DNA from: an uncultured bacterium
GTDB lineage: Bacteria > Omnitrophota > Omnitrophia > Omnitrophales > Abzuiibacteriaceae
Length of the DNA stretch: 64,000 nucleotides
Direction of reading: 5' to 3'
Assembly (NCBI GenBank): GCA_964387845.1
Contig: CAYLXA010000003.1
Coordinates: 164,089 to 228,088, forward strand
Part shown: positions 34,181 to 59,434 of the stretch, piece after piece
How the letters are laid out: each line of letters opens with the position of its first letter
Position numbering within the stretch: position 1 is the first letter of the stretch
Notes under the pieces: generated by a model
What the model was told of the DNA's origin: nothing
What the model saw: the letters and a program-made list of their open reading frames with translations, nothing else
Databases searched by the model: none
Made by a program: the position numbers and the translations under genes

Positions 34181-34194
34181 TTTCTAAAATCTAC

Positions 34195-35183: not shown

Positions 35184-35187
35184 TCAA

Positions 35188-35556: not shown

Positions 35557-35651
35557 ATTGGCCTCCTGGCTTTGATGCTACTAATATCGGCTCCGGCGGA
35601 AATTTTCTTCTCCAGAATTTTCAGAAAAATAGGTATACTACCCCTTAAATC

Positions 35652-36901: not shown

Positions 36902-36922
36902 GGGTGCTATTATAACGCAAGC

Positions 36923-38416: not shown

Positions 38417-38417
38417 A

Positions 38418-38681
38418 ATGACAGCACCGAAAGTAGTTGTTTATACGAAAAAACATTGCCCTTATTGCGAAGCAGCGAAGCGGCTGCTTGCCGAAAAAAA
38501 AGTTCAGTTTCAGGAGATTAGTATCGAAGGTAATGAGAAATTACGAAACGAAATTGCCGCAAAATCCGGCCAGCAGACTGTCCCGCAAATTTTTGTAAAT
38601 GAAAAACCTCTAGGCGGCTTCCAGGATATTTCCGAACTCGATCAACGCGGCGAATTGGATAAAATTTTGGGTACCAAATAA
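38418..38681 (+). CDS. grxC: Glutaredoxin (Grx3-like)
   Basis: CPYC active site, TVPQIF and GGFQD(I) motifs. Confidence 0.85.
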   Translation: MTAPKVVVYTKKHCPYCEAAKRLLAEKKVQFQEISIEGNEKLRNEIAAKSGQQTVPQIFVNEKPLGGFQDISELDQRGELDKILGTK

Positions 38682-38683
38682 TC

Positions 38684-39799: not shown

Positions 39800-39800
39800 C

Positions 39801-40418
39801 ATGCAGTTTGATCTATTTAACCGGACACAGAATCAAATTCTAGACGCAGAATCCTACCCCGAATTTAAAAAGCTCCTAATCGATTCTAAATGCACGAAAT
39901 GCCAGTTGTGTGGTGGCCGCAAGAATATTGTTGTCGACCGCGGCAATTCCGATACAAAAATCATGCTGATCGGCGAAGCGCCCGGTGAAAATGAGGATTT
40001 GCAGGGGAAGGCATTTGTCGGCCGAGCGGGCAGGCTCATGGATCAATTGATGCTTGAAGTTGGCATTGATACCAATCAAGACACACTAATCGCAAACATT
40101 GTCAAATGCCGTCCGCCGGAAAACCGGGCGCCGAAGCAAGACGAAGTGGATCAATGCAAGCCGTTTCTGCTCAAACAAATTCAGCTTGTGAATCCGAAAA
40201 TCATCGTGCTTTTGGGCGCAACTGCTCTGAAGCACTTGATTCCTGAGAAAGCCAAAGCGGCGATGAGCTCTGAGGTCGGAAACGCCTTTACGCATCAGGA
40301 TTTTCCGGGTATTCAATTGATGGTTCTTTATCATCCTGCATATATCTTGCGCGATCCGCGCAAAAAGCCGCTCATGCAGGAACATCTCAAAAAATTGAAG
40401 CGGTTAATCTCAAAATAA
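39801..40418 (+). CDS. Uracil-DNA glycosylase, family 4
   Basis: GEAPGENEDLQGKAFVGRAGRLM and the CKCQLCGGRK cysteine cluster. Also HPAYILR. Confidence 0.85.
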   Translation: MQFDLFNRTQNQILDAESYPEFKKLLIDSKCTKCQLCGGRKNIVVDRGNSDTKIMLIGEAPGENEDLQGKAFVGRAGRLMDQLMLEVGIDTNQDTLIANIVKCRPPENRAPKQDEVDQCKPFLLKQIQLVNPKIIVLLGATALKHLIPEKAKAAMSSEVGNAFTHQDFPGIQLMVLYHPAYILRDPRKKPLMQEHLKKLKRLISK

Positions 40419-40507
40419 ATTTGTCCTAGACGCTTTCATCTTTCGAGGATAAAATTTGAGCCTGTTTTGATCAATCCTCATTTTAATCAGTTAACCGCGA
40501 GGTTTTC

Positions 40508-41464
40508 ATGAAAATTTATTCAGATATCACCAAAACCATCGGCAATACACCGCTTGTGCGCCTAAACCGGGTTACAAAAGGCTGCAGCGCGGAAATTGTT
40601 GCCAAATTGGAGTTTTTCAACCCGATGGCGAGCGTCAAAGACCGGATCGGCGTTAATATGATTGAAGATGCGGAAAAAAAGGGTGTTTTAAAGCCCGGCG
40701 CGACCGTGATTGAACCTACGAGCGGTAATACGGGAATTGCGCTTGCGTTTGTTTGTGCCGCAAAGGGTTATAAATTGATTCTGACAATGCCCGAAACCAT
40801 GAGCATTGAACGCAGAATGCTTTTGACGCTTCTCGGTGCGGAAGTTGTACTGACAAAAGGCGAAGAAGGCATGCGCGGCGCGATTAAAAAGGCCGAAGAG
40901 TTGGTTGCATCAACACCCGGTTCATTTATGCCGCAGCAATTTAAAAATCCCGCCAATGTTGAAATCCACCGGAAATCCACCGCGGAAGAAATCTGGCGCG
41001 ATACGGACGGTAAAGTCGATATTTTAATTTCAGGTGTCGGAACCGGCGGAACTATTACAGGCGTTTCTGAAGTCATCAAAACTAAAAAATCGAGCTTTAA
41101 AGCCATCGCAGTTGAACCGAAAGATTCGCCGGTGCTTTCAGGCGGAAAGCCGGGCCCGCATAAAATTCAGGGAATTGGCGCCGGGTTTATTCCGGATATT
41201 CTCAATACGAAAATTATTGATGAAATTATCCAAGTATCAAATGAAGAGTCGCTTGAATGGGCACGCCGGCTTGCAAAAGAAGAAGGCCTTCTCGTCGGAA
41301 TTTCTTCGGGCGCTGCTGTTTCTGCCGCAGTTCAGGTCGGGAAACGGCCCGAAAATAAAGGCAAGTTGATTGTCGTCATCATTCCAAGTTTCGGCGAGCG
41401 CTATTTGAGCACGGCACTTACGGAAGGCGTTCGTGATATTGCAACCGCACAAGCCGCCCGGTGA
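40508..41464 (+). CDS. cysK: Cysteine synthase A (O-acetylserine sulfhydrylase)
   Basis: [10 protein letters not shown] (PLP Lys), [10 protein letters not shown] and [10 protein letters not shown]. Confidence 0.9.
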
Positions 41465-42993
41465 CCGATCGATTTAAATTAGCAGCCGGTTTTGGTTTGT
41501 TGGTTGCCGTTTTACTGCTTTTTTTCTGCCTTTCACGCGACTTCGTATCCGCTTCGGAATCTTCATTCCGGTTAAGCAGCGCTACTTTCTTAATTTTCAG
41601 AATCACAATCGCACTTTTCTGCATATTTTTGCTCGTCTCACAGAATGTTTCTTTCTCCAAATATATCCCGGGCGCTGTTTTATTTCTTTTTGTGCTGATG
41701 TTCTTAGAAAAGTGGACTCAGCATATGAGCTTCAATACGCATTCCCATGATGTGGGGCTTTTTCACAGCGCGCTCTGGAATTCGTTGCACGGAAATTGGC
41801 TGCTTGATTCGGTACGAGGCCAGTTTTATCTGGCAGACCATTTGATTTTCTTTTTGTATTTTCTCATCCCGTTTTATTGGATTTACTCGGGCCCTGAAAC
41901 TTTGTATTTTTTATCAGCCGTTGCGTTTGCATTTAGTGCATTCTTCATTTTCAAACTTGCAAAAGAGCGCTTGAAGAATGAGCTCGCGGCCTTTTTAATT
42001 TTCACCGCTTTTGCGAGCAACCGTTACATTTGGGGCGCTTTTCTGCATGAATTTCATCCGGATTTTTTTGCGCCGCTGTTTTTGTTTATACTGTTTTTTT
42101 CTTTCTATCAGAAAAAATTTTTCCCGTTCTTTCTGTCGTTTGTCTGCATTTTAATTTTGAAAGAAGATTACGCGCTCTATTTAATCCCGGCTGGAATTTA
42201 TTTTTTTATCCAAAAAGAAGGAAAACCGACCGGCCTTGCTGTGATTTTAATCAGCGTGGTTTATTTCGGAGCGGCTTATTTCTGGATACTGCCGCACATG
42301 CAGAAAATTTCAGGGATAACTTCGGGTTACACATACGTTAACTCGTGGTCTCATTTGGGTTCCGGGCCTTTTGATATTGTTAGAAATTTGGTTTTAAATC
42401 CGGCGGCTTTTCTTTCTTCAATTTCTTACAAAACAATCTTTACTTTTTTCACCAAGTTCATTTTCTTGCCCTTTTTAAGCCCCGCAAGCCTTCTATTTCT
42501 ACTTCCGCCGATTTTTTTATATACATCTGCCCAGTTTGAGCTGATCCGAGGCCTGAGCGTGCATTACGGTCTGATTCCGGCGGCGTTTGGATTCATTGCT
42601 GTGATTGAGGCTGTGAGAAATCTGGAGAAGATGAAAATACCGAAAAATCTGACTCCCATTCTGATTTCCATTTTATGTGTTGTCGGTCTTTTCCGATTCA
42701 CTTTCTTCATCCCAATGCCGGAGTCGGGAGAGCTTAAAATGCGCCAAGACGGGTTCATGAAAAAAAGGCCGATTTGTGTCCAGTCATCCCTTTTCCCGCA
42801 TTTAGTTCCTGACGGCTCATTTTCCATTTTTCCGGAATGTTCCGCAGGAGATAAATACTTACTTTTATTTGCAAAGGCCGAAACCTACCCGTTTTCAAAA
42901 CCGGAGTTTCAGAAACGTTTGTCTGAAATTATTGCAAGCGACAAGTGGCAACTTAAAGAGAATTCCGGCGGAGTCATGCTGTTTGAAAAGTGA
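41461..42993 (+). CDS. DUF2079-like polytopic membrane protein (GT-C-like)
   Basis: 510 aa with many TM helices. [32 protein letters not shown] resembles DUF2079, from memory. Overlaps the cysK stop. Confidence 0.45.
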
Positions 42994-43061
42994 GTTCGCA
43001 ATTAAATATATCTATGATATGATCACTGCTTATAAATAGAGTTTTCAAATCAAGGAAAGTT

Positions 43062-44048
43062 ATGCCTAATTTTTGGAGCAATGCAAAAGTTTTAGTAACG
43101 GGCGCGCATGGTTTTACGGGGTCTCACCTGTGTCATGAGCTTGTGGCACAAGGTGCTCAGGTAAAAGCGTTTGTGAAGAACGGTGGCATGATCGCAAACC
43201 TTGCCGATATCCGCGATAAAATCACGATCTATTCGGGTGACGTTACGGATATTACAAGCCTTTTCACCTCAATGGAGGGCGTCGACTACGTATTTAATGC
43301 CGCCGCCATTGTTCCCGTTATCGAAGCCCGTCAGTCTCCGCAAGCCTGTCTTCAAGTGAATACCATCGGTGCCTACAACGTTGCTTATGCTGCGATGAAA
43401 TCGGGTATTAAAAAAATGCTTCACGTAAGCACCTGTCATATTTACGGATTTAGTTCAGCCGACGAGCTTCCGATCAAAGAAACCCTGGTTCCTCGCCCAA
43501 GAGACGTTTATGCAGCATCAAAATATGCCGCAGAGATTTGTTTAAAAACACTGGTTGATGAAGGTTTTCCCATTACTTTTACCCGGGCGTTTGCGATGTA
43601 TGGCCCCGGCCAACGGGAACAGTTGTTTATTCCGAGAGTAATTGCCCATTTGCTTAGAGGAGAAGCGCCCAAGCTTGGCAATTCTCACCCGACACGCGAC
43701 TACTGCTTTATCAAAGACACGGTTAGAGGTTATTTACTTGCGCTTGAAAAGGGAAAGCCGGGCGAAGTTTATCATTTGAGTTCCGGGAAAGAAGTTGTCA
43801 TGAAAGATTTGTATGATCTAATTGCAAAGCTATTGGGAAGTAATTTAAAAGCCACCTGGAATATGGATCCTAGGCCGCACGAAATTGACAGGCTTTGCGG
43901 AAATTCAGACAAAGCCCGTTCTGCATTCAACTGGAAGCCCGAAGTGAGTTTTGAAGAGGGCCTTAAAATTACGATTGAATGGTGGAAAAGCCATCCGGAA
44001 TTATGGAAGCCCGGTTCCGGCCACCCTGTTGCGCCTTTAGCAAGATAA
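43062..44048 (+). CDS. NAD-dependent NDP-sugar epimerase/dehydratase
   Basis: VLVTGAHGFTGSHL (Rossmann) and YAASKYAAE (YxxxK). Confidence 0.8.
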   Translation: MPNFWSNAKVLVTGAHGFTGSHLCHELVAQGAQVKAFVKNGGMIANLADIRDKITIYSGDVTDITSLFTSMEGVDYVFNAAAIVPVIEARQSPQACLQVNTIGAYNVAYAAMKSGIKKMLHVSTCHIYGFSSADELPIKETLVPRPRDVYAASKYAAEICLKTLVDEGFPITFTRAFAMYGPGQREQLFIPRVIAHLLRGEAPKLGNSHPTRDYCFIKDTVRGYLLALEKGKPGEVYHLSSGKEVVMKDLYDLIAKLLGSNLKATWNMDPRPHEIDRLCGNSDKARSAFNWKPEVSFEEGLKITIEWWKSHPELWKPGSGHPVAPLAR

Positions 44049-44054
44049 AAAATC

Positions 44055-46421
44055 GTGCTTAAAGCAAAAGCCGCGAATGCATCCCATTGTTTTTGGTTTC
44101 TTCTAATTGTTCTTGCCCAGTTTATTTTCTTTGCGTATTGGATCATAACGCAAAGGATGTTCAGTGAGCACGACACATTCCATTTTTTTAGTCTCCAATA
44201 TTATTATTTAAATCATGCCGTGATGTATGGAGCCATTCCGCAATGGATCCCGTTTCTGACACACGGACTGATCGCCAGCCAGTTTTACGCTTTACAATCT
44301 GGACTCCTGCAAAATGTATTCATGCTGATTGCGCCCGTCTTTAAGCCGTTTAATTTTCTCAATATTTTTTACGCCAGCATGTTTATAGACGAATTGTTTC
44401 TTCTGGCCGGTTCGTGGCTTTTGGCAAAACGTTATTTTAAGTCAGTTTACACGGTTTTTTTTGTCTGCATTTCTGTCATCGGGTCAGCAATTTGGGCCTA
44501 CCAGCCGTGGTTTAATTTCCGGTTCTATTATGCAATTCCGCTTATTCTTTTCTTTTTTCACACATTCTTAGATACGGGCCGCTGGCGGTATTTTGTTCTT
44601 GGCATGAATCTAATTGCCATTCAAACGCTAGGCAATTTGTCCTATCTCATTCCGTTTACGACCGCCGCTCTTTTTGTATACTTTCTGTTGCATTTTTTTC
44701 TAAATCAGGAAACTGTTCTCAAACAATTCAGCCAAATCCGGTTCAATCACTCGTTATGGATTCCGGCTTTTTGGATAGCCGTGTCTTTTACGGCGGTTTA
44801 TGCAATCTTGGCTTTCGGCACCGATCAAGTTTTGTATTACGGCCACTTGCGGGCCCGCGACGGCAGTGTTGCATTAGAAAGTTTTATGCATACGAGGCCT
44901 GAAATGGGAAGGTTTAGCTTTTTTGAGTTCATGCTGGGCATTTTGCCTTTTAATGATTACACCATGTATACAGGTTTTATCTCGGCTTTTATGGTTATGT
45001 GGGCGCTGGTTACTAAGTGGGATAGCCGGAAATCCGCTTTGATCTTGTTTTGTGCTTTCATTTTATTTTTCGCCTACGGCACTTTTGTGAGTATTTTCTT
45101 CTACCATGTCTGGCCCATGATGAAATATTTCCGCCACATTGAATTGACGATGAGTTTTTGTAAGTTGTTTCTTTGCTTTTTAGCAGGGTTTGGCTTTGAG
45201 GCGTTTTTTATATCTCAAGAACCTTCCGGAAGAATAAAAATCCTTTTCGCTGCACTAGCTTTAATTATTTCCGCAGGTTTTTCTGCCGTCATGGCCAATC
45301 CTGATTTGTCCGGAAAAATATTTTCCTTTTTTAAATTAGACCCCGCTTTTGTTGATTTTTTGTACAGGAAGTATGAAGCAAGAGGCCTTTTGATTTTAGC
45401 GGCGGGATTGGCTTTTTCCGCAGTTTTGCTGATAAGTCTTAAAAAAAAGTTTGCTGCAATTCTGTGGTTTGTATTAATGGTTCATAGTTTGGATCTTTTT
45501 TTTTACAAGTGGCAGTTATTTTATGACGGCAGCACAAAATTGAGCCCAAAACAGTACCAGACGCTGCAATTTACCAAGATTCCCTTTTTTGAAAGCCGGG
45601 AAAGTAGTTATACGGAAAGAGAGGTTATTTTTGGAGATGAGCCTAGCAAATTTTTTGAGGGAAGCAATGCCAGGTATTGGACACTTTTTACATTTCTTTT
45701 TCAAGATAGCTTTAACAGCGAGCGGCAAACCGATCAGTGGCTGAAGCCGCTCGATCATTTGATAAAGGCTTACCATGGCCAGTCTATTCATGATACAGAA
45801 GCTGTGCCTGCTGACGGATTTAATCAAAGGGAGCACAAACTCATTCTGCCTAATAAACCCTCGCTCCAAAAAATCAGCTCCCTCACCGAAGACAAAATCC
45901 AGTTCTTCTCGGATGCCCATATCCTGGGTTCTCCGGATGAGGTTGCCGGATTAATGACAGACCCTCAATTTAAGGGAGATCTTCTTTTCTTGAATCAGCC
46001 GGGCCATGATCCTAAACCCTTTAACCGGCCGCTTGATTCCAATGAGCGCCTGAATCTCGACTATGAAGTCACTCATTTTGATTCCAATCAAATCCAAGTC
46101 TCAGTCAATATCCCGGGCAATCAACCCGCCTGGATATTCTACAGCGATGTCTGGCATCCTTTTTGGAAGGTAATAGTCAACGGTAAAACAAAAACAGTCT
46201 ATAAAGCCGATCTTGCCTATAAAGCCGCCCCCCTAGAACCCGGGCAAAACAACATACGTTTCTACTTCGAATCCAACTGGATCTCTTTCCTTCATCTCTT
46301 CTTTAACCTCCATGCCGTCTTCTGGCTCCTCATCCTGTGCCTGCTCATTGCCAAGATCTGTGTGCCGGAGGGGAGGTGGGGCAGGTTAAAAATTTTCGCT
46401 TTGATGCTTAAAGAGATATGA
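44055..46421 (+). CDS. YfhO-like GT-C-type membrane protein, paralog 1 (788 aa)
   Basis: About 12 N-terminal TM helices, an extracytoplasmic domain of roughly 300 aa and a terminal TM. The architecture matches the YfhO family. The product is inferred. Confidence 0.45.
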   Translation: MLKAKAANASHCFWFLLIVLAQFIFFAYWIITQRMFSEHDTFHFFSLQYYYLNHAVMYGAIPQWIPFLTHGLIASQFYALQSGLLQNVFMLIAPVFKPFNFLNIFYASMFIDELFLLAGSWLLAKRYFKSVYTVFFVCISVIGSAIWAYQPWFNFRFYYAIPLILFFFHTFLDTGRWRYFVLGMNLIAIQTLGNLSYLIPFTTAALFVYFLLHFFLNQETVLKQFSQIRFNHSLWIPAFWIAVSFTAVYAILAFGTDQVLYYGHLRARDGSVALESFMHTRPEMGRFSFFEFMLGILPFNDYTMYTGFISAFMVMWALVTKWDSRKSALILFCAFILFFAYGTFVSIFFYHVWPMMKYFRHIELTMSFCKLFLCFLAGFGFEAFFISQEPSGRIKILFAALALIISAGFSAVMANPDLSGKIFSFFKLDPAFVDFLYRKYEARGLLILAAGLAFSAVLLISLKKKFAAILWFVLMVHSLDLFFYKWQLFYDGSTKLSPKQYQTLQFTKIPFFESRESSYTEREVIFGDEPSKFFEGSNARYWTLFTFLFQDSFNSERQTDQWLKPLDHLIKAYHGQSIHDTEAVPADGFNQREHKLILPNKPSLQKISSLTEDKIQFFSDAHILGSPDEVAGLMTDPQFKGDLLFLNQPGHDPKPFNRPLDSNERLNLDYEVTHFDSNQIQVSVNIPGNQPAWIFYSDVWHPFWKVIVNGKTKTVYKADLAYKAAPLEPGQNNIRFYFESNWISFLHLFFNLHAVFWLLILCLLIAKICVPEGRWGRLKIFALMLKEI
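44169..44257 (+). repeat. 89-bp segment 100% identical to 49062-49150
   Basis: Direct nucleotide comparison; encodes HDTFHFFSLQYYYLNHAVMYGAIPQWIPFL in both paralogs. Confidence 0.9.
45106..45159 (+). repeat. 54-bp segment 100% identical to 49999-50052
   Basis: Encodes VWPMMKYFRHIELTMSF in both paralogs. Confidence 0.9.
45867..46376 (+). repeat. 510-bp segment 100% identical to 50679-51188
   Basis: The whole C-terminal domain (LQKISSLTEDKIQFF...LLIAKICVPEGR) is identical at the DNA level in both paralogs. Confidence 0.9.
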
Positions 46422-46454
46422 TAAGCTGACATTTAAGATTTTGAATTAGGATTA

Positions 46455-47474
46455 TTGTTCAATCGAAACCAATTCAAAAACCCTATGTTTCAAAACAAAA
46501 AAGTACTAGTGACCGGCGGCAGCGGGATGATCGGCCGGTTTTTGGTCGATTTTCTCATTGAAAAGGGCGCCAAAGTCAGGGTTGCGTCTCTGGATGATCC
46601 GTCGCGCGTACATGCCAAAGCAGAATTCCGCCGTGCAAATTTAACGGAATTTAGTGCCTGCCTGGCGGCCTGCGAAGGCATGGATTATGTTTTTCATTTG
46701 GCAGGAATCAAGGGCTCCCCATTAATGGCGGCCAAAAGGCCCGCTAGTTTCTTTGTCCCTATTATTTCATTCAATACCAACATGATGGAAGCGGCGCGTC
46801 AGTGCAAAGTCGAGCGCTATTTGTATACCAGCACTATCGGAGTTTACGCTCCGGCTGAAGTATTCTATGAAGACGATGTATGGAAAGCATTTCCTTCCGA
46901 GAATGACAAGTTTGCGGGATGGGCCAAGCGCATCGGGGAACTTCAGGCCGAAGCCTATAAAATTGAGCACGGCTGGAACGGTGTTCAGATTGTCAGGCCG
47001 GCCAACGTGTACGGCCCTTATGATAATTTTGACCCCAACAATTCAACTGTCATAGCGTCATTAATTAAACGGGCCGTAGATGGTGAAAATCCGCTTACGG
47101 TTTGGGGCGATGGTTCGCCGATCCGAGATTTTATTCACGCCAAAGACGTTGCCCGCGGCATGCTGATTGTGATGGAAAAAATGCCCGGAAAGCCCGTCAA
47201 TTTGGGAAGTGGCGTGGGTGTTACCATTAAACAAATTGTCGAAGTTATCGTGAGCCATTTAAAGAAAAAACCCGAAATTATGTGGGATACGTCAAAGCCG
47301 TTGGGCGATAAAAAGCGCCTGATGGATGTTGCGCGCGCCAAGTCTATCGGTTTTGAACCCGAAATATCGATTGAGCAAGGGATTCATGAACTCATGGATT
47401 GGTATCGAGCCAATAGGCAGTTACTTGATAAACGGTATAATGTTTTTACTCAAGATAGATTGATGTCAACCTAG
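46455..47474 (+). CDS. GDP-L-fucose synthase-like NAD(P)-dependent epimerase/reductase
   Basis: VLVTGGSGMIGRFL and a YxxxK motif; Fcl/WcaG-like. Confidence 0.7.
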   Translation: MFNRNQFKNPMFQNKKVLVTGGSGMIGRFLVDFLIEKGAKVRVASLDDPSRVHAKAEFRRANLTEFSACLAACEGMDYVFHLAGIKGSPLMAAKRPASFFVPIISFNTNMMEAARQCKVERYLYTSTIGVYAPAEVFYEDDVWKAFPSENDKFAGWAKRIGELQAEAYKIEHGWNGVQIVRPANVYGPYDNFDPNNSTVIASLIKRAVDGENPLTVWGDGSPIRDFIHAKDVARGMLIVMEKMPGKPVNLGSGVGVTIKQIVEVIVSHLKKKPEIMWDTSKPLGDKKRLMDVARAKSIGFEPEISIEQGIHELMDWYRANRQLLDKRYNVFTQDRLMST

Positions 47475-47527
47475 AAAGGCGGCGCTGTATTTCCCAAAAT
47501 TTTTTAATTACCGGGATTCGAAGCGGC

Positions 47528-48256
47528 TTGGGCCGATATTTGCACGAAGAACTCAAAGGGCGAGGTATTTCTCGAGAAACGATTGGTGAAGAATTTAATC
47601 AAATAATAAAATCAGGCGCTCAAACGATTATTCATTGTGCCTTTAACTCGTTTCAGAACGCCGACCCTGCATTAGCAAGCAATCTTCGTAAAGAAAATCT
47701 CGTGTTCACAAAAAAACTGACCCAAATCCCTCATCAAAAGTTTATTTTTATTTCCAGTGTAGATGTTTATCCAAGAAATTCGGAACTGCACAACGAAAAT
47801 GAAGTTATTCAAGAGAACCAAGTCGAAGGCGTATACGCCAAAAGCAAATTTGAATGTGAATCAGCCGTTCAAATCGGGTGTAAAAATTATTTAATATTGC
47901 GCTCTTCGTCACTCCTTGGTAAATATTCGAGACCGAGCAGTTTAATTCGCATATTAAAAGAAGAAAATTGCCGGCTGACATTGTCGCCTGATTCGGATTT
48001 AAATTGCGTACTTTATGAAGATGTTCTCGGATTTTTGCGTCTTTCAGTCAAAGAAAGTCTGAAGGGAGTTTATAACACCGTGTCATCGGGAAATATTTTG
48101 GTGTCTGATGCTGCGAAATTATTAAAGAAAAAAGTAGAGTTTGGAAATTATAGTTATCAGGTCGGAAACGTCGATAATCGTAAAGCTTCATTGATATATC
48201 CGGCATTTAAGAAGACATCAGAGCAAATATTCAAACAATTTTCTAGACAAATATGA
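47528..48256 (+). CDS. RmlD-like NAD(P)-dependent reductase/epimerase, apparently using a non-ATG start
   Basis: YAKSK catalytic motif. The Rossmann-like LITGIRSGLGRYL lies upstream of the only TTG start (47528), with a TAG stop at 47456. There is no in-frame ATG. Confidence 0.45.
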   Translation: MGRYLHEELKGRGISRETIGEEFNQIIKSGAQTIIHCAFNSFQNADPALASNLRKENLVFTKKLTQIPHQKFIFISSVDVYPRNSELHNENEVIQENQVEGVYAKSKFECESAVQIGCKNYLILRSSSLLGKYSRPSSLIRILKEENCRLTLSPDSDLNCVLYEDVLGFLRLSVKESLKGVYNTVSSGNILVSDAAKLLKKKVEFGNYSYQVGNVDNRKASLIYPAFKKTSEQIFKQFSRQI

Positions 48257-48924
48257 AGACAACTTTATTAGTTCCTACTCTGAACGAAATTGAAGGCATG
48301 AAAATCATCATGCCAAGAATTGACCCTAAGTGGGTTGATGAAATTTTAGTAATCGACGGCGGCTCTACGGACGGAACCATTGAATATGCGAAGGAGCACG
48401 GCTATCGGCTGATACATCAAAAATCAAAAGGAATCACATTGGCCTATAAAGAAGCTTTGGATCAAATTTCAAACGATGTTGTCATTGCGTTCAGCCCTGA
48501 CGGCAACTCAGTTCCTGAAATAATTCCGGATTTGATACGGGCCATGAAAGAAGGATACGACATGGTGATCGTTTCTCGCTATTTAAAAGGAGCTGGTAGT
48601 GAAGATGACGACCCCGTTACCGCATTTGGGAATTGGATGTTTACCGCGATCATCAATCTGGTTTTTGGAGGGCATTATACCGATACGCTCGTGATGTTCC
48701 GGGCTTTTAAGACGAGCGTTGTTAAATCGTTTCCGACCAATGTGCCGCGCGCAGGCCTTGAACCCATGCTTTCCATCCGGTGCGCTAAGCATAAACTCAA
48801 AGTTTCTGAAATTCCGGGTAAAGAACCAAAGCGAATCGGCGGAATCCGAAAAATGGTCCCTATTTTGAATGGGCTCGATATTGTAAAGCTCATCGTCCAA
48901 GAGAGACTTTCACCGAATTCTTAA
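48253..48924 (+). CDS. GT2-family polyprenol-phosphate glycosyltransferase (GtrB/CsbB/DPM1-like)
   Basis: LLVPTLNE...ILVIDGGSTDGT...DADLQ-like DxD region. 223 aa. Confidence 0.7.
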   Translation: MKTTLLVPTLNEIEGMKIIMPRIDPKWVDEILVIDGGSTDGTIEYAKEHGYRLIHQKSKGITLAYKEALDQISNDVVIAFSPDGNSVPEIIPDLIRAMKEGYDMVIVSRYLKGAGSEDDDPVTAFGNWMFTAIINLVFGGHYTDTLVMFRAFKTSVVKSFPTNVPRAGLEPMLSIRCAKHKLKVSEIPGKEPKRIGGIRKMVPILNGLDIVKLIVQERLSPNS

Positions 48925-48947
48925 GCCTTCCTTTATTAGAGGTTAGC

Positions 48948-51221
48948 TTGGAAAAGATAAAAAAATTTTTTAATCTAGAATTCCGTTTATTTTTTCTGCT
49001 AGTTTCAATTCAAGCCGCTTTTTTTTTGACGTTAATTCTGCAAAAAAGGCTCCCAAATTCACACGACACATTCCATTTTTTTAGTCTCCAATATTATTAT
49101 TTAAATCATGCCGTGATGTATGGAGCCATTCCGCAATGGATCCCGTTTCTCACGCACGGATTGATTGCAAACGGATTTTATGCGCTGCAATGCGGGTTTC
49201 TACAGAACGTGCTTATGGCGGCTGCGCCGTTTTTGAGCAAAATCAATTTCTTGCCCGTATTTTATGCGGGCATGTTTGTCGATGAGCTTCTGCTGGTTGT
49301 TGGTACTTGGCTGCTTGCCAAAAGATTTTTTTCATCTTTATCGACCGTTTTTTTTGTTTGCATCTCGGTCGTCGGCTCCTCCGTTTGGGTAACCCAACCG
49401 TGGTTTAATTTTCGGTTTCTTTATACGGTTCCGCTTATGATTTATTTTTTTCATCTGTTTCTTGAATCTGCCAAATGGCGGTATTTTTTCCTAGGATTTG
49501 GCTTAATGGCCTTTCAAACGCTCGGCAATTTGGCGTATTCGATTCCGTTTACCAGTGTTTTTATTTTCATGTACTTTTTATTTTATACAGCTTTAAATTT
49601 CAGAAACGTACTGGCTCAAGCCAAACAAATAAAATTTAATTTTTCGTTGCTGATTCCGGCTTTGTGGGTGATTGCACTATTCGTGCTCTGTTACAGCATT
49701 CTTTCATTCGGAACGGATGAGGTAATGCATTACGGTTTTAACAGGAATCGAGACGGCACTGTCAGCCTCGGTGATTTTTTGGATGCAAGCCCACTTTTGG
49801 CCAGGCTCAGTCCCGATGAGCTTCTGTTTGGTGCGCTTCCGTCAATTGATTACTCGCTATATGCAGGAGTGGCGGCAGTTTATTTTGCGATAGCGGGCGC
49901 TATTGCAAACAGAAGTAGAAATAAAATCGTATTTGTTTTATTGGCCATTTTTATCATGCTCTTTTCTCAGGGAGCTTTTGTCAGCATGTTTTTTTATTAT
50001 GTCTGGCCCATGATGAAATATTTCCGCCACATTGAATTGACGATGAGTTTTTTCAGGCTATCCATGTGCTTTTTAGCGGGTTTTGGCTTCGAGTGGCTCT
50101 TGGTTCACAAGACGGAAACAGGGAGGGCACATGTTTTTATAGCGTCGGTTTGCTTTATCGCATCATTAGGATATTTTATTTTGGGCTATGGTGAAAATAG
50201 CAACGGTTTTTTAATATTGATAATCGGAACTTTATTTTCATTTTTTCTTTTATTTGACAGAAAGAAGTGGCATGGAGTTACTGTTGTACTTTTATTAATG
50301 CTCCATAGCGTTGATATATTTGCATATAAATGGACCGAGTTTGAAAAGAAAAGTTTTTTACTCAATGAGCAACAGTATGAAATTCTAAAATTTTCAAAGA
50401 TCCCGTTTGTTAGTAAAAGAGACCAAGGATATTCGGGTCGAGAACCTATTTTGGGCGATTTGCTTCAGTTCGTGATTCGCGGAGGGAATTATTGGACGAT
50501 TTATGCATTTCTTTTCAAAGATGACTTCGATAGCTATTTACAGACCCATCAATGGATGCTACCTCTCGACCAGTATTTAAGGGCCTATGCCGGGGTTTCT
50601 ATATATGATCGTCAATCGGTGCCAATACCTACGTTTCGCATCAACCGCGCTTTGGTATTTCCAAGAAGTTCTTCTTTGCAAAAAATCAGCTCCCTCACCG
50701 AAGACAAAATCCAGTTCTTCTCGGATGCCCATATCCTGGGTTCTCCGGATGAGGTTGCCGGATTAATGACAGACCCTCAATTTAAGGGAGATCTTCTTTT
50801 CTTGAATCAGCCGGGCCATGATCCTAAACCCTTTAACCGGCCGCTTGATTCCAATGAGCGCCTGAATCTCGACTATGAAGTCACTCATTTTGATTCCAAT
50901 CAAATCCAAGTCTCAGTCAATATCCCGGGCAATCAACCCGCCTGGATATTCTACAGCGATGTCTGGCATCCTTTTTGGAAGGTAATAGTCAACGGTAAAA
51001 CAAAAACAGTCTATAAAGCCGATCTTGCCTATAAAGCCGCCCCCCTAGAACCCGGGCAAAACAACATACGTTTCTACTTCGAATCCAACTGGATCTCTTT
51101 CCTTCATCTCTTCTTTAACCTCCATGCCGTCTTCTGGCTCCTCATCCTGTGCCTGCTCATTGCCAAGATCTGTGTGCCGGAGGGGAGGCAGCGCGGCGTG
51201 AAGATATATGAATTAATTTAG
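48948..51221 (+). CDS. YfhO-like GT-C-type membrane protein, paralog 2 (757 aa; TTG start)
   Basis: Same architecture as 44055-46421. The first in-frame start is TTG at 48948. Confidence 0.45.
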   Translation: MEKIKKFFNLEFRLFFLLVSIQAAFFLTLILQKRLPNSHDTFHFFSLQYYYLNHAVMYGAIPQWIPFLTHGLIANGFYALQCGFLQNVLMAAAPFLSKINFLPVFYAGMFVDELLLVVGTWLLAKRFFSSLSTVFFVCISVVGSSVWVTQPWFNFRFLYTVPLMIYFFHLFLESAKWRYFFLGFGLMAFQTLGNLAYSIPFTSVFIFMYFLFYTALNFRNVLAQAKQIKFNFSLLIPALWVIALFVLCYSILSFGTDEVMHYGFNRNRDGTVSLGDFLDASPLLARLSPDELLFGALPSIDYSLYAGVAAVYFAIAGAIANRSRNKIVFVLLAIFIMLFSQGAFVSMFFYYVWPMMKYFRHIELTMSFFRLSMCFLAGFGFEWLLVHKTETGRAHVFIASVCFIASLGYFILGYGENSNGFLILIIGTLFSFFLLFDRKKWHGVTVVLLLMLHSVDIFAYKWTEFEKKSFLLNEQQYEILKFSKIPFVSKRDQGYSGREPILGDLLQFVIRGGNYWTIYAFLFKDDFDSYLQTHQWMLPLDQYLRAYAGVSIYDRQSVPIPTFRINRALVFPRSSSLQKISSLTEDKIQFFSDAHILGSPDEVAGLMTDPQFKGDLLFLNQPGHDPKPFNRPLDSNERLNLDYEVTHFDSNQIQVSVNIPGNQPAWIFYSDVWHPFWKVIVNGKTKTVYKADLAYKAAPLEPGQNNIRFYFESNWISFLHLFFNLHAVFWLLILCLLIAKICVPEGRQRGVKIYELI
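49062..49150 (+). repeat. 89-bp copy identical to 44169-44257
   Basis: See partner. Confidence 0.9.
49999..50052 (+). repeat. 54-bp copy identical to 45106-45159
   Basis: See partner. Confidence 0.9.
50679..51188 (+). repeat. 510-bp copy identical to 45867-46376
   Basis: See partner. Confidence 0.9.
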
Positions 51222-52199
51222 AGGAAGTTTTATGATGCTGGCTGAAATTAGCGGCTCACCGATTTCAATTTCGGTTCCAACCTGAAGATAATCACTTGCA
51301 ACGAAACCAAGCGCAAGCGGCTTTGAAAGCGCAGGCGAAAACACGGCGCTTGTGATCCGGCCGATTTCCTTTCCCGATTTTTGAATTTTATCTCCCAAAT
51401 TAGGGATTTTGTCTCCGGCCACAATAATTCCGGTTAACTGTTTTGCAAATTTTCCGCGGCTGTCGATTCGCGCGACAATTTCCTGGCCCGGGTAGCAGCC
51501 TTTTGTAAAGCTCACAGCTTTTGGCTCGATTAGTTTCACTTCCGGCAAGATAATGTCTTCAGTCAGGTCAATTCCATACCGCGGCGTTCCGGATTCAACG
51601 CGTAAAATCTGAATAATTTCAGATTCAATTTGCGAGATGCCCAGCGGCTGCGCAGCGCTTTTGATTTTTTCGAGTGCTTTGCTTTTTTCTTGGCTCGGAA
51701 TCACAATGCACCAAGTTTTAAATCCGAAAAGGGAGATACAGAAAATCCGGCAGTCAAAATCTTTTGCTTTTGACGGCCCGTGCGAAAAAATCTCCTTCGG
51801 GTAATCACTATTAAAAAGCGTTTTAACGGCATCTTCAGCTTTCGGGCCCAAAATCGCCAAGATCGAAAGCTCTTTAGATTGATTGGTAAATGTTACATCG
51901 TCGGTAACCGTAAATTTTTCTAGAACGCCAATGACTTTCTCGGTAATCGAAGATTCCATAGCAAGCCACGTTCTTTCATTTTCAACAAACACATTCATGT
52001 CGGCGATGATTTTAGCCTGAGCATTCAACAGGCAAGCATAACAGCCGCTTCCGGATTTTATGTTTTTGATATCATTTGTGAGCATCCGGTGAAGAAATGA
52101 AACGGCATCTTTTCCGTTCACTTCGATTAAGGCCCGGTTTGAAAGATCAATGATTGCGCCGTTAGATTTTGCGGATTTGTATTGATCCATGTTTTTCAT
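51213..52199 (-). CDS. ygfZ: Folate-binding Fe-S cluster repair/tRNA-modifying protein YgfZ (GcvT-like)
   Basis: KGCYPGQE signature and GcvT-like fold. Confidence 0.8.
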   Translation of the reverse strand: MKNMDQYKSAKSNGAIIDLSNRALIEVNGKDAVSFLHRMLTNDIKNIKSGSGCYACLLNAQAKIIADMNVFVENERTWLAMESSITEKVIGVLEKFTVTDDVTFTNQSKELSILAILGPKAEDAVKTLFNSDYPKEIFSHGPSKAKDFDCRIFCISLFGFKTWCIVIPSQEKSKALEKIKSAAQPLGISQIESEIIQILRVESGTPRYGIDLTEDIILPEVKLIEPKAVSFTKGCYPGQEIVARIDSRGKFAKQLTGIIVAGDKIPNLGDKIQKSGKEIGRITSAVFSPALSKPLALGFVASDYLQVGTEIEIGEPLISASIIKLPLN

Positions 52200-54361
52200 A
52201 TTTTTGTCGTCAAGCGGGTTCCGATCCAGAATAAAGCCAGTGATGCCAACACACCAAAAAGAATCTGGAGATTTGTAAAAGGTTCATAATCCATCGAAAC
52301 ATGCCGGTCTCCCGGTTTTACTTTGATGCGCATCAAGCGGTCTTCTTTTGCATAAATACCCCTCTCTTTCCCGTTGACGAGCGCTTTCCAGCCTTTTAAA
52401 TCAATAAACGTTGCAACCAACTCTTCTTCCCGTTGAATGGAAGGCAGCTTCACCTTTAGGCCGTTGCCTTTTATTTGAATCGACGCAGGATCGAGCCAGG
52501 ACCTGACGTTCCCATTTTGGAGATAAACAATACTAACCGGTTCCGGATTTTCAAAAAGCAAGAGAATGGATTGCTGGCCGGCAACGCGCCAGTTATTTTC
52601 CATCAATTCCCGGCGCGGCCCCGTCAAAATGTATTTAATTCCGAGGCGGTTCACTTTTTCCTGGTCCCAGGGCCCCACAAAATGATAAGCAAGCGGCGTC
52701 AGGTCAACTTCGATCATTTTTTCTTTCATCAGAAAATCCGCGAAACGCTTGTTTACCAAAATGCTGCGCCCCGCGCTGCCAAGAACATATTTTTCGGCAG
52801 CCCGTAAATCGTGCCCATGCGCGGTGACAATTTCGGCAGCAAGGCGTGAATTAGGCGTCATTGCGTCGAGAAATTTTTCAGGCAGAAATTTTGATTCCCA
52901 GCTGTTTGAGTAATGATGAATAGGAAAAGGGCCCGGGTCTTTGCTGACGCAGCATTCGGACCAATCTTCGAGATTCAAAATATTGGCTGCTATGGTTACC
53001 TTTGACCAAATCAGCGACAGGCCCAGCAGCCCGCAAAAAATCAGGCCGATGTTTGATCGGGCTTGTTTGCCGGAATCTATTTTTGAAGCCAAACAATAAA
53101 TTGCGTACAAAATAACAAAAGCCAAGAAAAAGAAAACGGGAAATTTATATTTCCACTCAATTTGATGCCAATCGAGCCAAAAAACTGATGCGAGAAGAAC
53201 CGCCGCAAGAATAGCTAAGGAAACCGCCAAAAACTTTTTCGAAAAGGCATTTTTTGAAATTTTATCCAGCGCGATTCCGGCCGGAACGGCAAAAAAAACG
53301 CTCGAAATCCACCAAATTCGCGTGGCATCGGTGGATTTAAGAAGCGGGGCGGATAAGTAAAAGTCTTTGAAACGCAAAAGGAGAAAGACAAAAATGACAG
53401 GCCCAATTCCTAAGATCAGAAACCGGACAGGAAAATAAATATTCTTTTTGAAATCATTCTTAAAACTCCAAACAAGCCCGATTAAGGATAAGGTGACAAG
53501 CGGCAGTGAAAAATAAATCGCGGAATCCATGTGATGGCGCCATGGTTTTTGCTGGCCGATCAGGCCCGATAAAAGCCGCTTAAAAGTGTAATCCGGAGCC
53601 AAATATTTTTGGCCGACGCGCGCGCTTTCTTTTACATGTTCAAAAAAGTTCATAAAATCTGCGTAATAAAATAAAAATCCTGCCGCGATCACGATCAAAG
53701 TCAAAATCATTTTTTTGTCAAACCTGGCTCGGGACAAAAAGAGTTGGTTCAACACGATAAAAGGGATCATCAAAAAAACAAGATTGGTGCTTGTGCTTAA
53801 AGTTGCGGTCACCATAGCCGCATAAAACAAGAAAAGGTACTTCGCGTTAGGTTTGTCATTGAAGCGCTCTTGAAATATCAAAATTGCTATAAAACATAAA
53901 AGCGACAATTGATAGTAATGGTGTGCGAAATGCCATAAAAATCCGGGCGAAAAAAAGGTGACGACTGCGCAAATAGCGGCAATTCCGGCCGGCATATATT
54001 TTTTCAAATAAAAAATAAGCGCAAACACCGTCAAAAACGCAATCGCAGCCCGATTTATTGTCATGGCTACCGGATTCGGAAAAAAATAATAGGTAAGGGC
54101 GTGGGGCGAAAACGGATAAGTGGTTGCATCGCCTAAAATAGGTGTTCCGAAATTGTGGTACAAGTTCATCATCGGAATTTGGCCGTCGCGCATGATCGAA
54201 CGGGCTATGAAAAGATTGGGAAACGTGTGATTGGCGTCGTCTGCCTTGTCGAATGCGGCACAATCGGTAAAAAAGAAAACTTTGATGATCACGAACAAAG
54301 CAATCGCCAGAGGAACAAACCCGTACACAATTTGTTTCTTAAAGCTAAACGGCATGAGCAT
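52196..54361 (-). CDS. YfhO-like polytopic membrane protein, distant third paralog (721 aa)
   Basis: N-terminal multi-TM region, extracytoplasmic domain, C-terminal TM (ILFGVLASLALFWIG). Overlaps mutY and ygfZ, consistent with operon coupling. Confidence 0.4.
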   Translation of the reverse strand: MLMPFSFKKQIVYGFVPLAIALFVIIKVFFFTDCAAFDKADDANHTFPNLFIARSIMRDGQIPMMNLYHNFGTPILGDATTYPFSPHALTYYFFPNPVAMTINRAAIAFLTVFALIFYLKKYMPAGIAAICAVVTFFSPGFLWHFAHHYYQLSLLCFIAILIFQERFNDKPNAKYLFLFYAAMVTATLSTSTNLVFLMIPFIVLNQLFLSRARFDKKMILTLIVIAAGFLFYYADFMNFFEHVKESARVGQKYLAPDYTFKRLLSGLIGQQKPWRHHMDSAIYFSLPLVTLSLIGLVWSFKNDFKKNIYFPVRFLILGIGPVIFVFLLLRFKDFYLSAPLLKSTDATRIWWISSVFFAVPAGIALDKISKNAFSKKFLAVSLAILAAVLLASVFWLDWHQIEWKYKFPVFFFLAFVILYAIYCLASKIDSGKQARSNIGLIFCGLLGLSLIWSKVTIAANILNLEDWSECCVSKDPGPFPIHHYSNSWESKFLPEKFLDAMTPNSRLAAEIVTAHGHDLRAAEKYVLGSAGRSILVNKRFADFLMKEKMIEVDLTPLAYHFVGPWDQEKVNRLGIKYILTGPRRELMENNWRVAGQQSILLLFENPEPVSIVYLQNGNVRSWLDPASIQIKGNGLKVKLPSIQREEELVATFIDLKGWKALVNGKERGIYAKEDRLMRIKVKPGDRHVSMDYEPFTNLQILFGVLASLALFWIGTRLTTKI

Positions 54362-55451
54362 ATTGTTCGAAGGTTGTTTTCAATAGACTTTGGTAAGGGA
54401 CCGGAAAAGAAAGCTTCGTGATTCCGGAACGTGAAACCCAGCGGCTTCCGGAATTAACATGGCCTTGATTCGTTTTGAAAACAAACGGCGAAATTGTCAT
54501 CTTCAAATGTGTTAAGTGATGCGTAATCGGTTCGATTGAAGCTATGGGCGCGGCTTTCATTTTGTATTCATTATGAATGTAGCGTTCGATTAATTCACGG
54601 AACGAATTTTTAACCGGCGAAGTGATGCTTGGCACTTCCCAAAGCCCGCCCCAAATGCCTTTCGCCGGCCGTTTCCGGACCAAAATTTTTCCGTCATTCA
54701 AGATAAAAGCAGCCGCAATCCGGACTTCTTTTTTCTGCAGAGCCTTGGATTTGATCGGCAATGATTCCTGATTTCCTTTTTTATATGCGGAACAAACCGA
54801 AGAAACCGGACAAGCCGTGCAATTGGGCATCGCCGGAATGCAAATCAAGGAACCAAGTTCCATGAGCGCTTGATTAAAATCTCCAGGTGATTTTTCAGGA
54901 ACCAACTGTCCGGCAATTTCGTATAAAAATTTCTGCGTTTCGGGTTTTAAAATATCCTTTTTGATATTAAAAAGCCGGGAAAGAACGCGCGCCACATTTC
55001 CATCGACAAGCGGCACGCGCTTTTCGAATCCGATGCTGGCGATGGCGCCTGCCGTGTAGCGTCCGATTCCCGGAAGCGCGAAGAGAGAATCAAAATCACT
55101 CGGAATTTTTCCGCCGTGTTTTTCACAAATCATTTGCGCCGCTTTATGCAGATTTCGCGCGCGCGTGTAATAACCAAGCCCCTCCCAAAGTTTTAAAACC
55201 TTATCGATCGGCGCTGCGGCGAGTGATTCGATATCGGGAAACACTTTCATCCAGCGTTCGAAATAGGGAATCACGGTCTTGATCTGAGTTTGCTGAAGCA
55301 TGACCTCAGAGATGAATGTTCGGTAAGGGCTTTTTTGGGAGCGCCAGGGCATGGGACGCTTATTTTTGGAAAACCAGGCAAGCAGGTTTTTTTGAATCTT
55401 TACCTGTACATTTCCCGAAACTTTCGAATTCATAGAGCTAGAATTTATCAT
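54345..55451 (-). CDS. mutY: A/G-specific adenine DNA glycosylase MutY
   Basis: PYRTFISEVMLQQTQIKTVIPYFERWM, LGYYTRARNL, a 4Fe-4S cluster (CIPAMPNCTACPVSSVC) and a C-terminal NUDIX-like domain. Confidence 0.88.
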   Translation of the reverse strand: MINSSSMNSKVSGNVQVKIQKNLLAWFSKNKRPMPWRSQKSPYRTFISEVMLQQTQIKTVIPYFERWMKVFPDIESLAAAPIDKVLKLWEGLGYYTRARNLHKAAQMICEKHGGKIPSDFDSLFALPGIGRYTAGAIASIGFEKRVPLVDGNVARVLSRLFNIKKDILKPETQKFLYEIAGQLVPEKSPGDFNQALMELGSLICIPAMPNCTACPVSSVCSAYKKGNQESLPIKSKALQKKEVRIAAAFILNDGKILVRKRPAKGIWGGLWEVPSITSPVKNSFRELIERYIHNEYKMKAAPIASIEPITHHLTHLKMTISPFVFKTNQGHVNSGSRWVSRSGITKLSFPVPYQSLLKTTFEQYAHAV

Positions 55452-55465
55452 ATAATGTTGGGCTT

Positions 55466-56812
55466 ATGAATCATAATTTAGAAAAGCTGGATAAGAAACA
55501 TATCTGGCATCCTTTCACGCAAATGCGCGATTGGGAGCGTGACGACATTCTTGTTATCGAGTCCGGCAAGGGATGTTTCCTGCGCGATACGAAGGGCAGG
55601 CGCTACATTGACGGCGTTTCATCGCTTTGGTGCAATGTGCACGGCCACCGGGTTCCCGAAATTGACCGCGCAGTCAAAAAACAGCTCGGAAAAATTGCAC
55701 ATTCGACTTTTTTGGGGCTTTCGAATGTTCCCGCCGTTTTGCTGGCGCAAAAATTAGTCAAAATCGCGCCCAAAGGGCTTTCACGCGTTTTTTATTCGGA
55801 TTCCGGCTCCGAATCGGTCGAAATCGCGGTCAAAATGGCGTTTCAATATTGGCAAAACCTTGGCGAAAAGAAGAAAACCAAATTTATCCGGCTCACAAAC
55901 GCTTACCACGGCGATACGCTCGGCTCCGTGTCGGTTGGCGGCATTCAATTGTTCCACGATATTTATCACTCGCTTACTTTTAAAACGATTTCAGTTCCGG
56001 CACCGTACCGGTATCGCGACTCATTTTCCGGCACCGAATCCGAGTACGCCAAATTTTGCGCAGATCGGCTGGAGAAAATTATTCAGAAGCATGCCCGTGA
56101 AACGGCAGCGCTCATCATCGAACCTTTGATGCAGGGAGCTGCCGGAATGATCAATCAACCCCGCGGATTCATTTCGCGTGCAAGACAGCTGACAAAAAAG
56201 TATAATGTGCTGCTCATTTTTGACGAGGTGGCAACGGGTCTTGGGCGGACCGGAAAATGGTTTGCGGCGGATCATGAAAGAGTTTCGCCGGACATTTTGT
56301 GCATCGCGAAAGGTTTGACGGGCGGTTATTTGCCTCTTGCTGTAACTCTAGCAACAGAAAATATTTACAACGCTTTTAAGGCCGATTACGCTGCCCTCAA
56401 AACGTTCTTTCATGGCCATACTTATACGGCGAATCAGCTGGCTTCAGCCGCGGCACTTGCCAATCTCGCAGTTTTTGATAAAAATAAGACGCTCACGAAG
56501 CTCAATTCCAAGTTAAAGTTCTTATCTAAAAGGCTTGAATCATTTTGGAAGCTCCGGCATGTCGGCGATATCCGCCAGACTGGTTTTATGGCCGGCATTG
56601 AACTTGTCCGAGACCGGATGACGAAAGAACCGTACGATTGGAAGGAAAAAATCGGGATCCGGGTCATTGAGGAAGCGCGTAAGCATGGCGTCATCATCCG
56701 GCCGCTTGGAAATGTGATCGTGCTGATGCCGCCGCTTGCGATCGAAATGAAAACGCTCGAAAAATTGTTGAATGTAGTTTATAGGTCAATTCAGAAAGTA
56801 ACGGAACGTTAA
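55466..56812 (+). CDS. bioA: Adenosylmethionine-8-amino-7-oxononanoate aminotransferase
   Basis: HIWHPFTQM, DGVSSLWCNVHGH and FDEVATGLGRTG. Confidence 0.9.
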   Translation: MNHNLEKLDKKHIWHPFTQMRDWERDDILVIESGKGCFLRDTKGRRYIDGVSSLWCNVHGHRVPEIDRAVKKQLGKIAHSTFLGLSNVPAVLLAQKLVKIAPKGLSRVFYSDSGSESVEIAVKMAFQYWQNLGEKKKTKFIRLTNAYHGDTLGSVSVGGIQLFHDIYHSLTFKTISVPAPYRYRDSFSGTESEYAKFCADRLEKIIQKHARETAALIIEPLMQGAAGMINQPRGFISRARQLTKKYNVLLIFDEVATGLGRTGKWFAADHERVSPDILCIAKGLTGGYLPLAVTLATENIYNAFKADYAALKTFFHGHTYTANQLASAAALANLAVFDKNKTLTKLNSKLKFLSKRLESFWKLRHVGDIRQTGFMAGIELVRDRMTKEPYDWKEKIGIRVIEEARKHGVIIRPLGNVIVLMPPLAIEMKTLEKLLNVVYRSIQKVTER

Positions 56813-56815
56813 ATT

Positions 56816-57526: not shown

Positions 57527-57528
57527 TT

Positions 57529-59426: not shown

Positions 59427-59434
59427 AAATCGTC

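Follow-up and report, generated by a model that had tools for sequence, protein, structure and literature searches.

Probable recent gene conversion between two old tandem paralogues for putative GT-C-fold membrane glycosyltransferases

The tufA/tufB genes and the rRNA operons are examples of concerted evolution in bacteria, and cassette-type antigenic variation, as in Neisseria pilE/pilS and Borrelia vlsE, uses many silent promoterless cassettes and dedicated cis elements and creates diversity. There is good documentation of ectopic gene conversion and concerted evolution among bacterial paralogues (PMC6053082, 26 genes; M. tuberculosis loci, PMC13061034 and PMC12046097), and outer-membrane or host-interaction genes are said to be concerned in the short-term prokaryotic cases (PMC6053082). 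Multi-component transmembrane glycosylation has been described for CsbB/YfhO(/GtcA) in Bacillus, Staphylococcus and Listeria, for GtrABC and for Pgf of Streptococcus mutans (PMC8035078, PMC5836110, PMC11127046; bioRxiv 10.1101/2022.10.10.511621), and reviews suggest that large GT-C enzymes bind the acceptor polymer by means of extracellular carbohydrate-binding domains (PMC8035078). Here we describe two tandem genes, A and B, for remotely YfhO-like membrane proteins in a 64-kb stretch of DNA from an uncultured bacterium (GCA_964387845.1, CAYLXA010000003.1, 164,089 to 228,088, forward strand). This whole stretch is called the window, and coordinates are window positions unless another locus is named. 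The two genes have three blocks of identical DNA in common, and we explain these by recent ectopic gene conversion, that is partial concerted evolution, between old tandem GT-C-fold paralogues, with a probability of roughly 0.8.

Three identical DNA blocks in two diverged genes

Gene A (44055..46421, + strand) has an open reading frame (ORF) of 788 amino acids (aa) and is predicted to encode a multi-pass membrane protein with a GT-C-like fold that is remotely YfhO-like. Gene B (48948..51221, +) is its diverged tandem paralogue with an ORF of 757 aa, and the two are homologous along their full length. The blocks, here also called islands, are all on the + strand. Island 1 (89 nucleotides (nt); 44169..44257 in A and 49062..49150 in B) covers residues 39-68 of A, HDTFHFFSLQYYYLNHAVMYGAIPQWIPFL, island 2 (54 nt; 45106..45159 and 49999..50052) covers residues 351-369, VWPMMKYFRHIELTMSF, and island 3 (510 nt; 45867..46376 and 50679..51188) covers residues 605-774. 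We found all three pairs, which had been picked out in a sequence-only reading of this DNA, to be 100% identical, to be impossible to extend by one base at either side, and to lie in frame within the two intact ORFs. The 510-nt block includes the terminal helix, as that reading had stated; it is not the whole C-terminal domain, since the soluble region begins at about residue 493.

Outside the blocks A and B are strongly diverged, as had been claimed, with 26-52% identity at the aa level and 40-59% at the nt level; the aa identity is 26% at the N-terminus, 52% in the interval between islands 1 and 2 and 40% in that between islands 2 and 3. At residues identical in the two proteins the same codon is used in 43-50% of cases outside the islands, which means that synonymous sites are saturated between A and B, and in 100% inside them, where 653/653 bases match. 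Beyond the block borders the identity drops at once to 40-65%, the between-species level, and over the 40-90 nt outside each border it equals that of the cross-genome control pairs, which confirms the sharp borders. Decayed older tracts around the islands were considered and rejected, because the flank identity is already at background.

The blocks also stood out by their length. When the 747 differences between A and B were shuffled 2000 times over the 2271 aligned sites, the longest exact run was at most 33 nt, compared with the observed runs of 510, 89 and 54 nt (a Sawyer-type test). A repeat finder and self-BLAST recovered these three blocks alone, and they are the sole long repeats of the window.

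Origin of the identical blocks

Two syntenic loci were used for comparison, L001 (a 525-kb contig, JGI 3300028648) and L002 (Logan, SRR18669186). The gene order in L002 is PALP, DUF2079, NUDIX, a single family gene S (788 aa), a convergent GCV_T gene and MutY; in L001 it is DUF2079, NUDIX, the family genes J1 and J2, GCV_T, a third YfhO-like gene and MutY. The genomes of the window, L001 and L002 are roughly equidistant, and the proteins of the housekeeping genes nearby have 61-95% identity among them. The MnmA protein of the window has its nearest named relatives, at 66-69% identity, in Candidatus Omnitrophota, which makes an uncultivated Omnitrophota-like bacterium the probable source. Among the GTDB species representatives the genome of the window was not found, the best match being 41%. 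Gene A is the orthologue of S and J1, to which its diverged segments are 51-71% identical (aa), and those of B are 38-58% identical to every other gene; for the 5' part of B no closer orthologue, that is none above 53%, was found among 5.8 billion proteins, and no unconverted orthologue of B was found in the databases. The longest exact run was 25 nt or shorter in eight of the nine other pairs among the five related genes, the exception being J1-J2.

The sequence-only reading had proposed to look at relatives and had named extreme purifying selection as a possible cause of the identity. Control pairs are 71-79% identical (nt) in island 1 and 74-89% in island 2, and in island 3 the common sequence of A and B compared with S, J1 and J2 is 48-60% identical at the aa level and 58-63% at the nt level, with 35-47% same codons. 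Inside the blocks the orthologous loci in L001 and L002 are only 59-89% identical (nt), with 35-79% same codons, and the islands are closer between A and B (100%) than to S, J1 and J2. These differences exclude extreme purifying selection as the cause, and selection at the protein or nucleotide level cannot explain the identity of A and B. A selected nucleotide sequence, such as an embedded RNA or regulatory element or an extreme codon constraint, might be suggested by the coincidence of islands 1 and 2 with the most conserved protein motifs, and many codons of island 2 are of low degeneracy (W, M, K, Y, F, H), so that its expected identity rises to 74-89%. However, the same columns show free synonymous variation among the orthologues and the L001 paralogues, all control pairs have only 59-64% nt identity in island 3, and the identity ends abruptly without a matching change in protein conservation, so that we give this explanation hardly any credence.

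Segment trees were built on a 19-sequence alignment with outgroups, and the diverged 5' part and the 510-nt block gave conflicting trees, as would be looked for after conversion. In the 5' tree A, S and J1 group together with 100% bootstrap, and B and J2 fall outside; in the island 3 tree A equals B, the A=B sequence groups with S (90%) and J1 groups with J2 (68.5%). The 5' tree is a paralogue tree, with a duplication that predates the three genomes, and the island 3 tree groups the copies by genome, which is the hallmark of concerted evolution, here limited to part of the gene. The diverged segments mid1 and mid2 of copy A are A-type, the short N-terminal segment being ambiguous, and copy A has a 24-codon indel in common with S and J1; hence segments were not swapped across islands 1 and 2. 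For the direction of copying we favour, not firmly, that the C-terminus of the A lineage overwrote that of B, because in island 3 the A=B sequence goes with S, a gene with an A-type 5' part.

Exact islands were also observed between tandem copies in other genomes. We analysed 63 loci, 61 from species-representative genomes together with L001 and L002, and in 12 of them the family is present as two to four tandem copies. Five genomes besides the window have such islands, 40-196 nt long. J1 and J2 of L001 have an exact run of 67 nt (12121-12187 = 14685-14751) at the SAWLYYSDVWHPFWKATVNGK motif, which is matched at only 50/67 positions in the window and 54/67 in L002. In L008, a Smithella metagenome-assembled genome (MAG; CAYNWA010000028), tandem copies that are about 72% identical overall have exact runs of 196 nt (8246-8441 = 10706-10901) and 180 nt (10138-10317 = 12607-12786), and the 180-nt run again takes in the last part of the C-terminal domain together with the terminal helix, a close parallel to the window. 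Seven exact runs of 40-68 nt were found in L007, one of 58 nt in L014 and runs of 40-59 nt in L005. We further compared the C-terminal identity of tandem copies with that predicted from their N-part by a regression on 807 between-genome pairs. The C-terminal part was more alike than predicted in the window (z 10.8), L008 (4.6), L007 (3.4) and L001 (2.1), the values for L007 and L008 being extrapolated, as few between-genome pairs have a high N-part identity. By these comparisons patchy exchange between tandem copies is a repeated, not a universal, feature of the family.

A chimeric or collapsed assembly had been named as the alternative from the start, and the window does come from a metagenome-derived contig of 228 kb, in which near-identical repeats may lose a few real differences at the consensus steps. 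When the exact proteins were looked up, A, B and GCV_T gave no records; the neighbour genes gave three contigs in the Logan assembly of SRR15237813 that are 100% identical to the window. Contig L067 (window 33062-44198) ends at base 30 of island 1 copy A, L066 (window 46347-49091) starts with the last 30 nt of island 3 copy A and ends at base 30 of island 1 copy B, and L068 (window 51159-63975) starts with the last 30 nt of island 3 copy B. Logan contigs are built from a k=31 de Bruijn graph. Contig ends 30 nt (k-1) inside the islands fit such a graph, in which branching requires the same 31-mers in two read contexts, and to judge from these ends the raw reads therefore contain the blocks and four of their junctions. 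An assembly or polishing artefact is in this way largely excluded and is in our opinion very improbable: the second assembly was made by a different method, a collapse yields one copy and not two, polishing cannot create islands where reads do not cross-map between copies that are 50-60% identical, no segments were swapped across islands 1 and 2, and similar islands are found in other assemblies from different projects.

The same graph bears on integration or excision of a cassette in place of conversion. This could have been a Campbell-type single crossover at the 510-nt block (H) between a 4.8-kb circle (tail-A, three sugar genes, B 5' part, H) and an ancestral gene (A 5' part, H, tail-B), or the true state could be that single hybrid gene next to a 4.8-kb unit that is circular or amplified. 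A k=31 graph looks alike for this state and for the tandem form, so that the two paths are indistinguishable in it, and the direct repeats do bracket a self-contained cassette. Its deletion leaves one intact gene beside GCV_T, which is the L002 layout down to the 9-nt overlap and the B-length post-KIC tail. However, islands 1 and 2 lie inside the diverged 5' parts and are left unexplained, so that exchange between the copies is needed anyway, and the incoming copy must already have had a C-terminus identical to that of the resident gene, which is itself a conversion-like event. Within 33-59 kb we found no replication, integrase or transposase genes, and no viral relatives were found; we consider this course of events improbable. 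A phage origin of the cassette, comparable to gtrABC on seroconverting phages, was rejected, with no family member in IMG/VR and no mobile-element genes nearby.

Gene conversion between A and B would have consisted of non-reciprocal copying in at least three separate recent tracts, because one heteroduplex could not span the intervening 700-850 nt of 50-60% identity. The two short tracts would lie at the two best-conserved motif regions, where the copies were previously about 75-85% alike; short tracts at the places where the copies are most alike are expected if strand invasion requires a short run of near-identity. A RecA-type invasion may begin at such conserved patches, and the 510-nt tract could have arisen by synthesis-dependent copying from an internal conserved patch, e.g. 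YSDVWHPFW. The ends of the tracts would be resolved in poorly homologous DNA, as the flanks of island 3 indicate, and no inverted repeats or special motifs were found when the tract borders were scanned. The right border of island 3 copy B comes 25 nt ahead of the GCV_T stop codon; this gene is convergent, and the 3' end of B overlaps it by 9 nt, the same as the single-copy S in L002; a tract extending past this border would probably have altered GCV_T. The result would be a homogenised C-terminal module and a transmembrane core that is still diverged.

Several points weigh against this explanation. The flanks of island 3 are only 44-50% identical between the copies, and textbook conversion does not involve a homology-driven tract that starts internally and ends in non-homologous DNA. 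For the path through the 510-nt repeat the deposited assembly is the only source, and bubble-popping or consensus could round a near-identity up to 100% and hide a few real differences. In five of the nine tandem-copy genomes tested (L005, L006, L022, L032 and L045) there is no C-terminal excess, so homogenisation is not a general property of the family. S itself could be a deletion-fusion of two former copies, since it adjoins GCV_T with a 9-nt overlap and its post-KIC tail has the length of that of B, which weighs against a firm polarity. Nevertheless, the orthologue comparison, the conflicting trees and the branch points of the Logan contigs together support the recent gene conversion between A and B that the sequence-only reading had suggested. 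Of the two effects it had mentioned, homogenisation is seen, and diversification found no support, both copies being intact.

Protein family, neighbouring genes and a possible role

The proteins A and B gave no Pfam or NCBIfam match, and A did not match PF09586 (YfhO) even at E<=1. In the family alignment, whose 19 members include A and B, 10 members match PF09586 weakly (best E 1.1e-7), and some relatives carry a precomputed PF09586 label; the term YfhO-like therefore holds in a remote sense and not as a Pfam assignment of A or B. A sequence search of solved structures gave no meaningful match. An AlphaFold2 model of A, made from the 19-sequence alignment, had a pLDDT (predicted local distance difference test) of 77 and a pTM (predicted template modelling score) of 0.82, with a helical membrane core to about residue 492, a partly disordered linker, a beta-rich soluble region and a terminal helix (741-769). 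The top Foldseek matches of this model in the PDB were nearly all GT-C enzymes (EmbA/B/C, ArnT, AftD, STT3/AglB, ALG12), and they were weak (E 1e-3 to 1e-1, TM 0.2-0.46). Judged by this model, in which the fold of A agrees with that of GT-C enzymes, A and B are predicted GT-C-fold, remotely YfhO-like membrane glycosyltransferases.

Each island covers a distinct part of this protein. Island 1 includes the nearly invariant Asp40 directly after the first helix, kept in at least 90% of the 19 sequences, which is a candidate for the conserved acidic residue of the first extracytoplasmic loop of GT-C enzymes. Island 2 is the most conserved motif of the family, WPMMKYFRH, with invariant W353, P354, M356, K357, R360 and H361, and island 3 consists of the distal beta-rich portion of the C-terminal soluble region and the terminal helix.

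The recorded starts of two family genes differ from those used here. In the database the protein of A (P0001) has 754 aa, 34 fewer than the ORF, which fits a start at Met35 (MFSEHDTF...). The GTG start at 44055 adds an N-terminal hydrophobic helix (44055-44157; CFWFLLIVLAQFIFFAYWII) that aligns with the first helix of S, J1 and B, which favours the longer form of 788 aa as probably the real one. J2 is recorded with 722 aa (P0005, start 12802); an uninterrupted ORF of 786 aa at L001 12610-14970, with a TTG start at 12610, restores the homologous N-terminus, and the recorded start was probably mis-called.

The gene for a DUF2079 membrane protein (41461..42993, +) is kept in synteny in the window, L001 and L002. 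It is followed in the window by a 4,6-dehydratase-like gene of the short-chain dehydrogenase/reductase (SDR) type directly upstream of A (43062..44048, +), which replaces the NUDIX gene of the relatives (L001 9423-10004, L002 9430-9993). Between A and B the window has three sugar genes (46455-48924) that are extra in comparison with L001 and L002. The first (46455..47474, +), absent from the corresponding position in both relatives, encodes an SDR-type sugar-nucleotide epimerase/reductase whose best NCBIfam match, GDP-L-fucose synthase, is below cut-off. The second (47528..48256, +) encodes a 242-aa SDR/RmlD-like protein that matches the later part of SDR profiles, and the third is a GT2 glycosyltransferase gene directly upstream of B (48253..48924, +). 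Taken together, the SDR-for-NUDIX replacement and the three extra sugar genes point to recent gene turnover at the locus. A wider duplication that would include the neighbouring SDR genes was rejected, as the two SDRs are 26% identical (aa) and have no DNA repeat in common. The 242-aa ORF covers only profile positions 55-186 of a 240-position epimerase model and was also called in the Logan contig L066; to judge from its sequence the beginning of the Rossmann fold is apparently missing, and the protein may be degenerate or non-catalytic.

The GT2 protein resembles the polyprenyl-phosphate hexose transferases AglJ, dolichyl-P hexose transferase, ArnC and PpgS, although none of these matches reaches its curated cut-off; homologues with 47-55% aa identity are encoded directly upstream of family genes in L005, L007, L008, L026, L036 and L045. 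The adjacent GT2 partner of a three-component (GT2 / flippase / GT-C) system is thus present. No GtrA-family Pfam match, as for a GtrA-type flippase, was found among the 20 ORFs scanned in 34-59 kb; by analogy with gtcA in Bacillus such a flippase could be encoded elsewhere in the genome (PMC8035078). In such a system the GT2 enzyme would make a polyprenyl-phosphate sugar, and the GT-C enzymes would transfer the sugar outside the cytoplasm. In L005 2559-12289, from another Smithella MAG, four tandem copies stand directly after one GT2 gene (1800-2438); one of these copies gave no uninterrupted ORF in our extraction and may be frameshifted.

Beyond GCV_T a third, very distant YfhO-like membrane protein is encoded convergently to A and B (52196..54361, -), with a weak PF09586 match (E 1.4e-4). 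This gene is also found in L001 (60% aa identity) and is absent from L002, and the GT-C gene content of the locus therefore varies between close relatives. A kinship of this gene with A and B was rejected, the protein match being only marginal and DNA identity absent. We regard the whole as a variable glycan-modification locus.

Upstream of these genes two paralogous small genes (35188-35556, - strand, and 36533-37072, -) flank the MTHFR gene; their products have hydrophobic, signal-peptide-like N-termini and the common motifs GW(S/T)EL and ADTAGGF, and the genes contain a 51-nt repeat (35258-35308 / 36591-36641). The same pair of genes, of about 120 aa, flanks MTHFR in L001 and L002. Elsewhere in the window, and unrelated to A and B, we noted a tRNA-Asn(GTT) (12843-12917, -), a membrane H+-pyrophosphatase (6461-8911, +) and a 745-aa peroxidase-family protein (9765-12002, -) that is possibly a catalase-peroxidase.

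The homogenised C-terminal module might be more than a neutral by-product, in that it is kept identical by selection or used as a recombination handle, an idea that we find rather unlikely and put forward tentatively. If selection were at work, the two enzymes would have an acceptor-binding module in common, and their membrane cores would diverge in donor or linkage specificity. If the module were a switch, the 510-nt direct repeats would allow RecA-mediated deletion and re-integration of the 4.8-kb cassette; this would move the population between a two-enzyme and a one-enzyme state of the surface glycan and always leave an intact hybrid gene, and L002, with its single copy, would represent the deleted state. 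The excess at the C-terminus, seen in four of the nine tandem-copy genomes, is compatible with a bias from selection or a handle and does not prove it. Arrays of the L005 type, with one GT2 and several GT-C genes, fit at least as well with the opposite idea of a shared lipid-linked donor and different acceptors.

Comparison with known systems

Our observations add a case of patchy conversion within strongly diverged paralogues, from uncultivated lineages, where events of this sort tend to be written off as noise of the assembly. In at least six genomes short tracts are exchanged within tandem arrays of this GT-C family, and whole-gene phylogenies and orthology calls for the family will mislead. 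Exact repeats like these also make metagenome assemblies break or join wrongly at places that can be predicted, and homogenisation by domains could influence how enzymes that decorate surface glycans evolve.

As in the CsbB/YfhO type of system, a GT2 gene of the polyprenyl-phosphate-sugar-synthase type lies directly upstream of a gene for a large GT-C-fold protein with a C-terminal extracytoplasmic domain (PMC8035078, PMC5836110), and as in multi-component glycosylation systems in general there are sugar-nucleotide epimerase genes nearby, here with three SDR-type enzymes. Unlike CsbB/YfhO, A and B have no Pfam YfhO match, and the ORFs scanned in 34-59 kb include no gene for a GtrA-type flippase. 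Unlike the hosts of CsbB/YfhO, the organism of the window is probably a diderm, Omnitrophota-like bacterium without teichoic acids.

Similar to the pilE/pilS and vlsE systems, segments of surface-related genes have been replaced by copying from a nearby homologous sequence. In contrast to these systems, A and B are two intact full-length genes, there are no silent cassettes, and the visible outcome is homogenisation.

The closest likeness is to the known conversion of bacterial paralogues, with non-reciprocal copying, paralogues that are closer to each other than to their orthologues within the tract, and conflicting segment trees. In the literature that we searched, this GT-C family of uncultivated Omnitrophota and Desulfobacterota was not found as a described example of conversion. 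The pair differs from the known cases in that A and B are homogenised in parts only and elsewhere about 50% diverged, and in that the tracts end in poorly homologous DNA. We therefore present A and B as a new, cleanly supported example of a known process, with a domain-wise pattern and no new mechanism.

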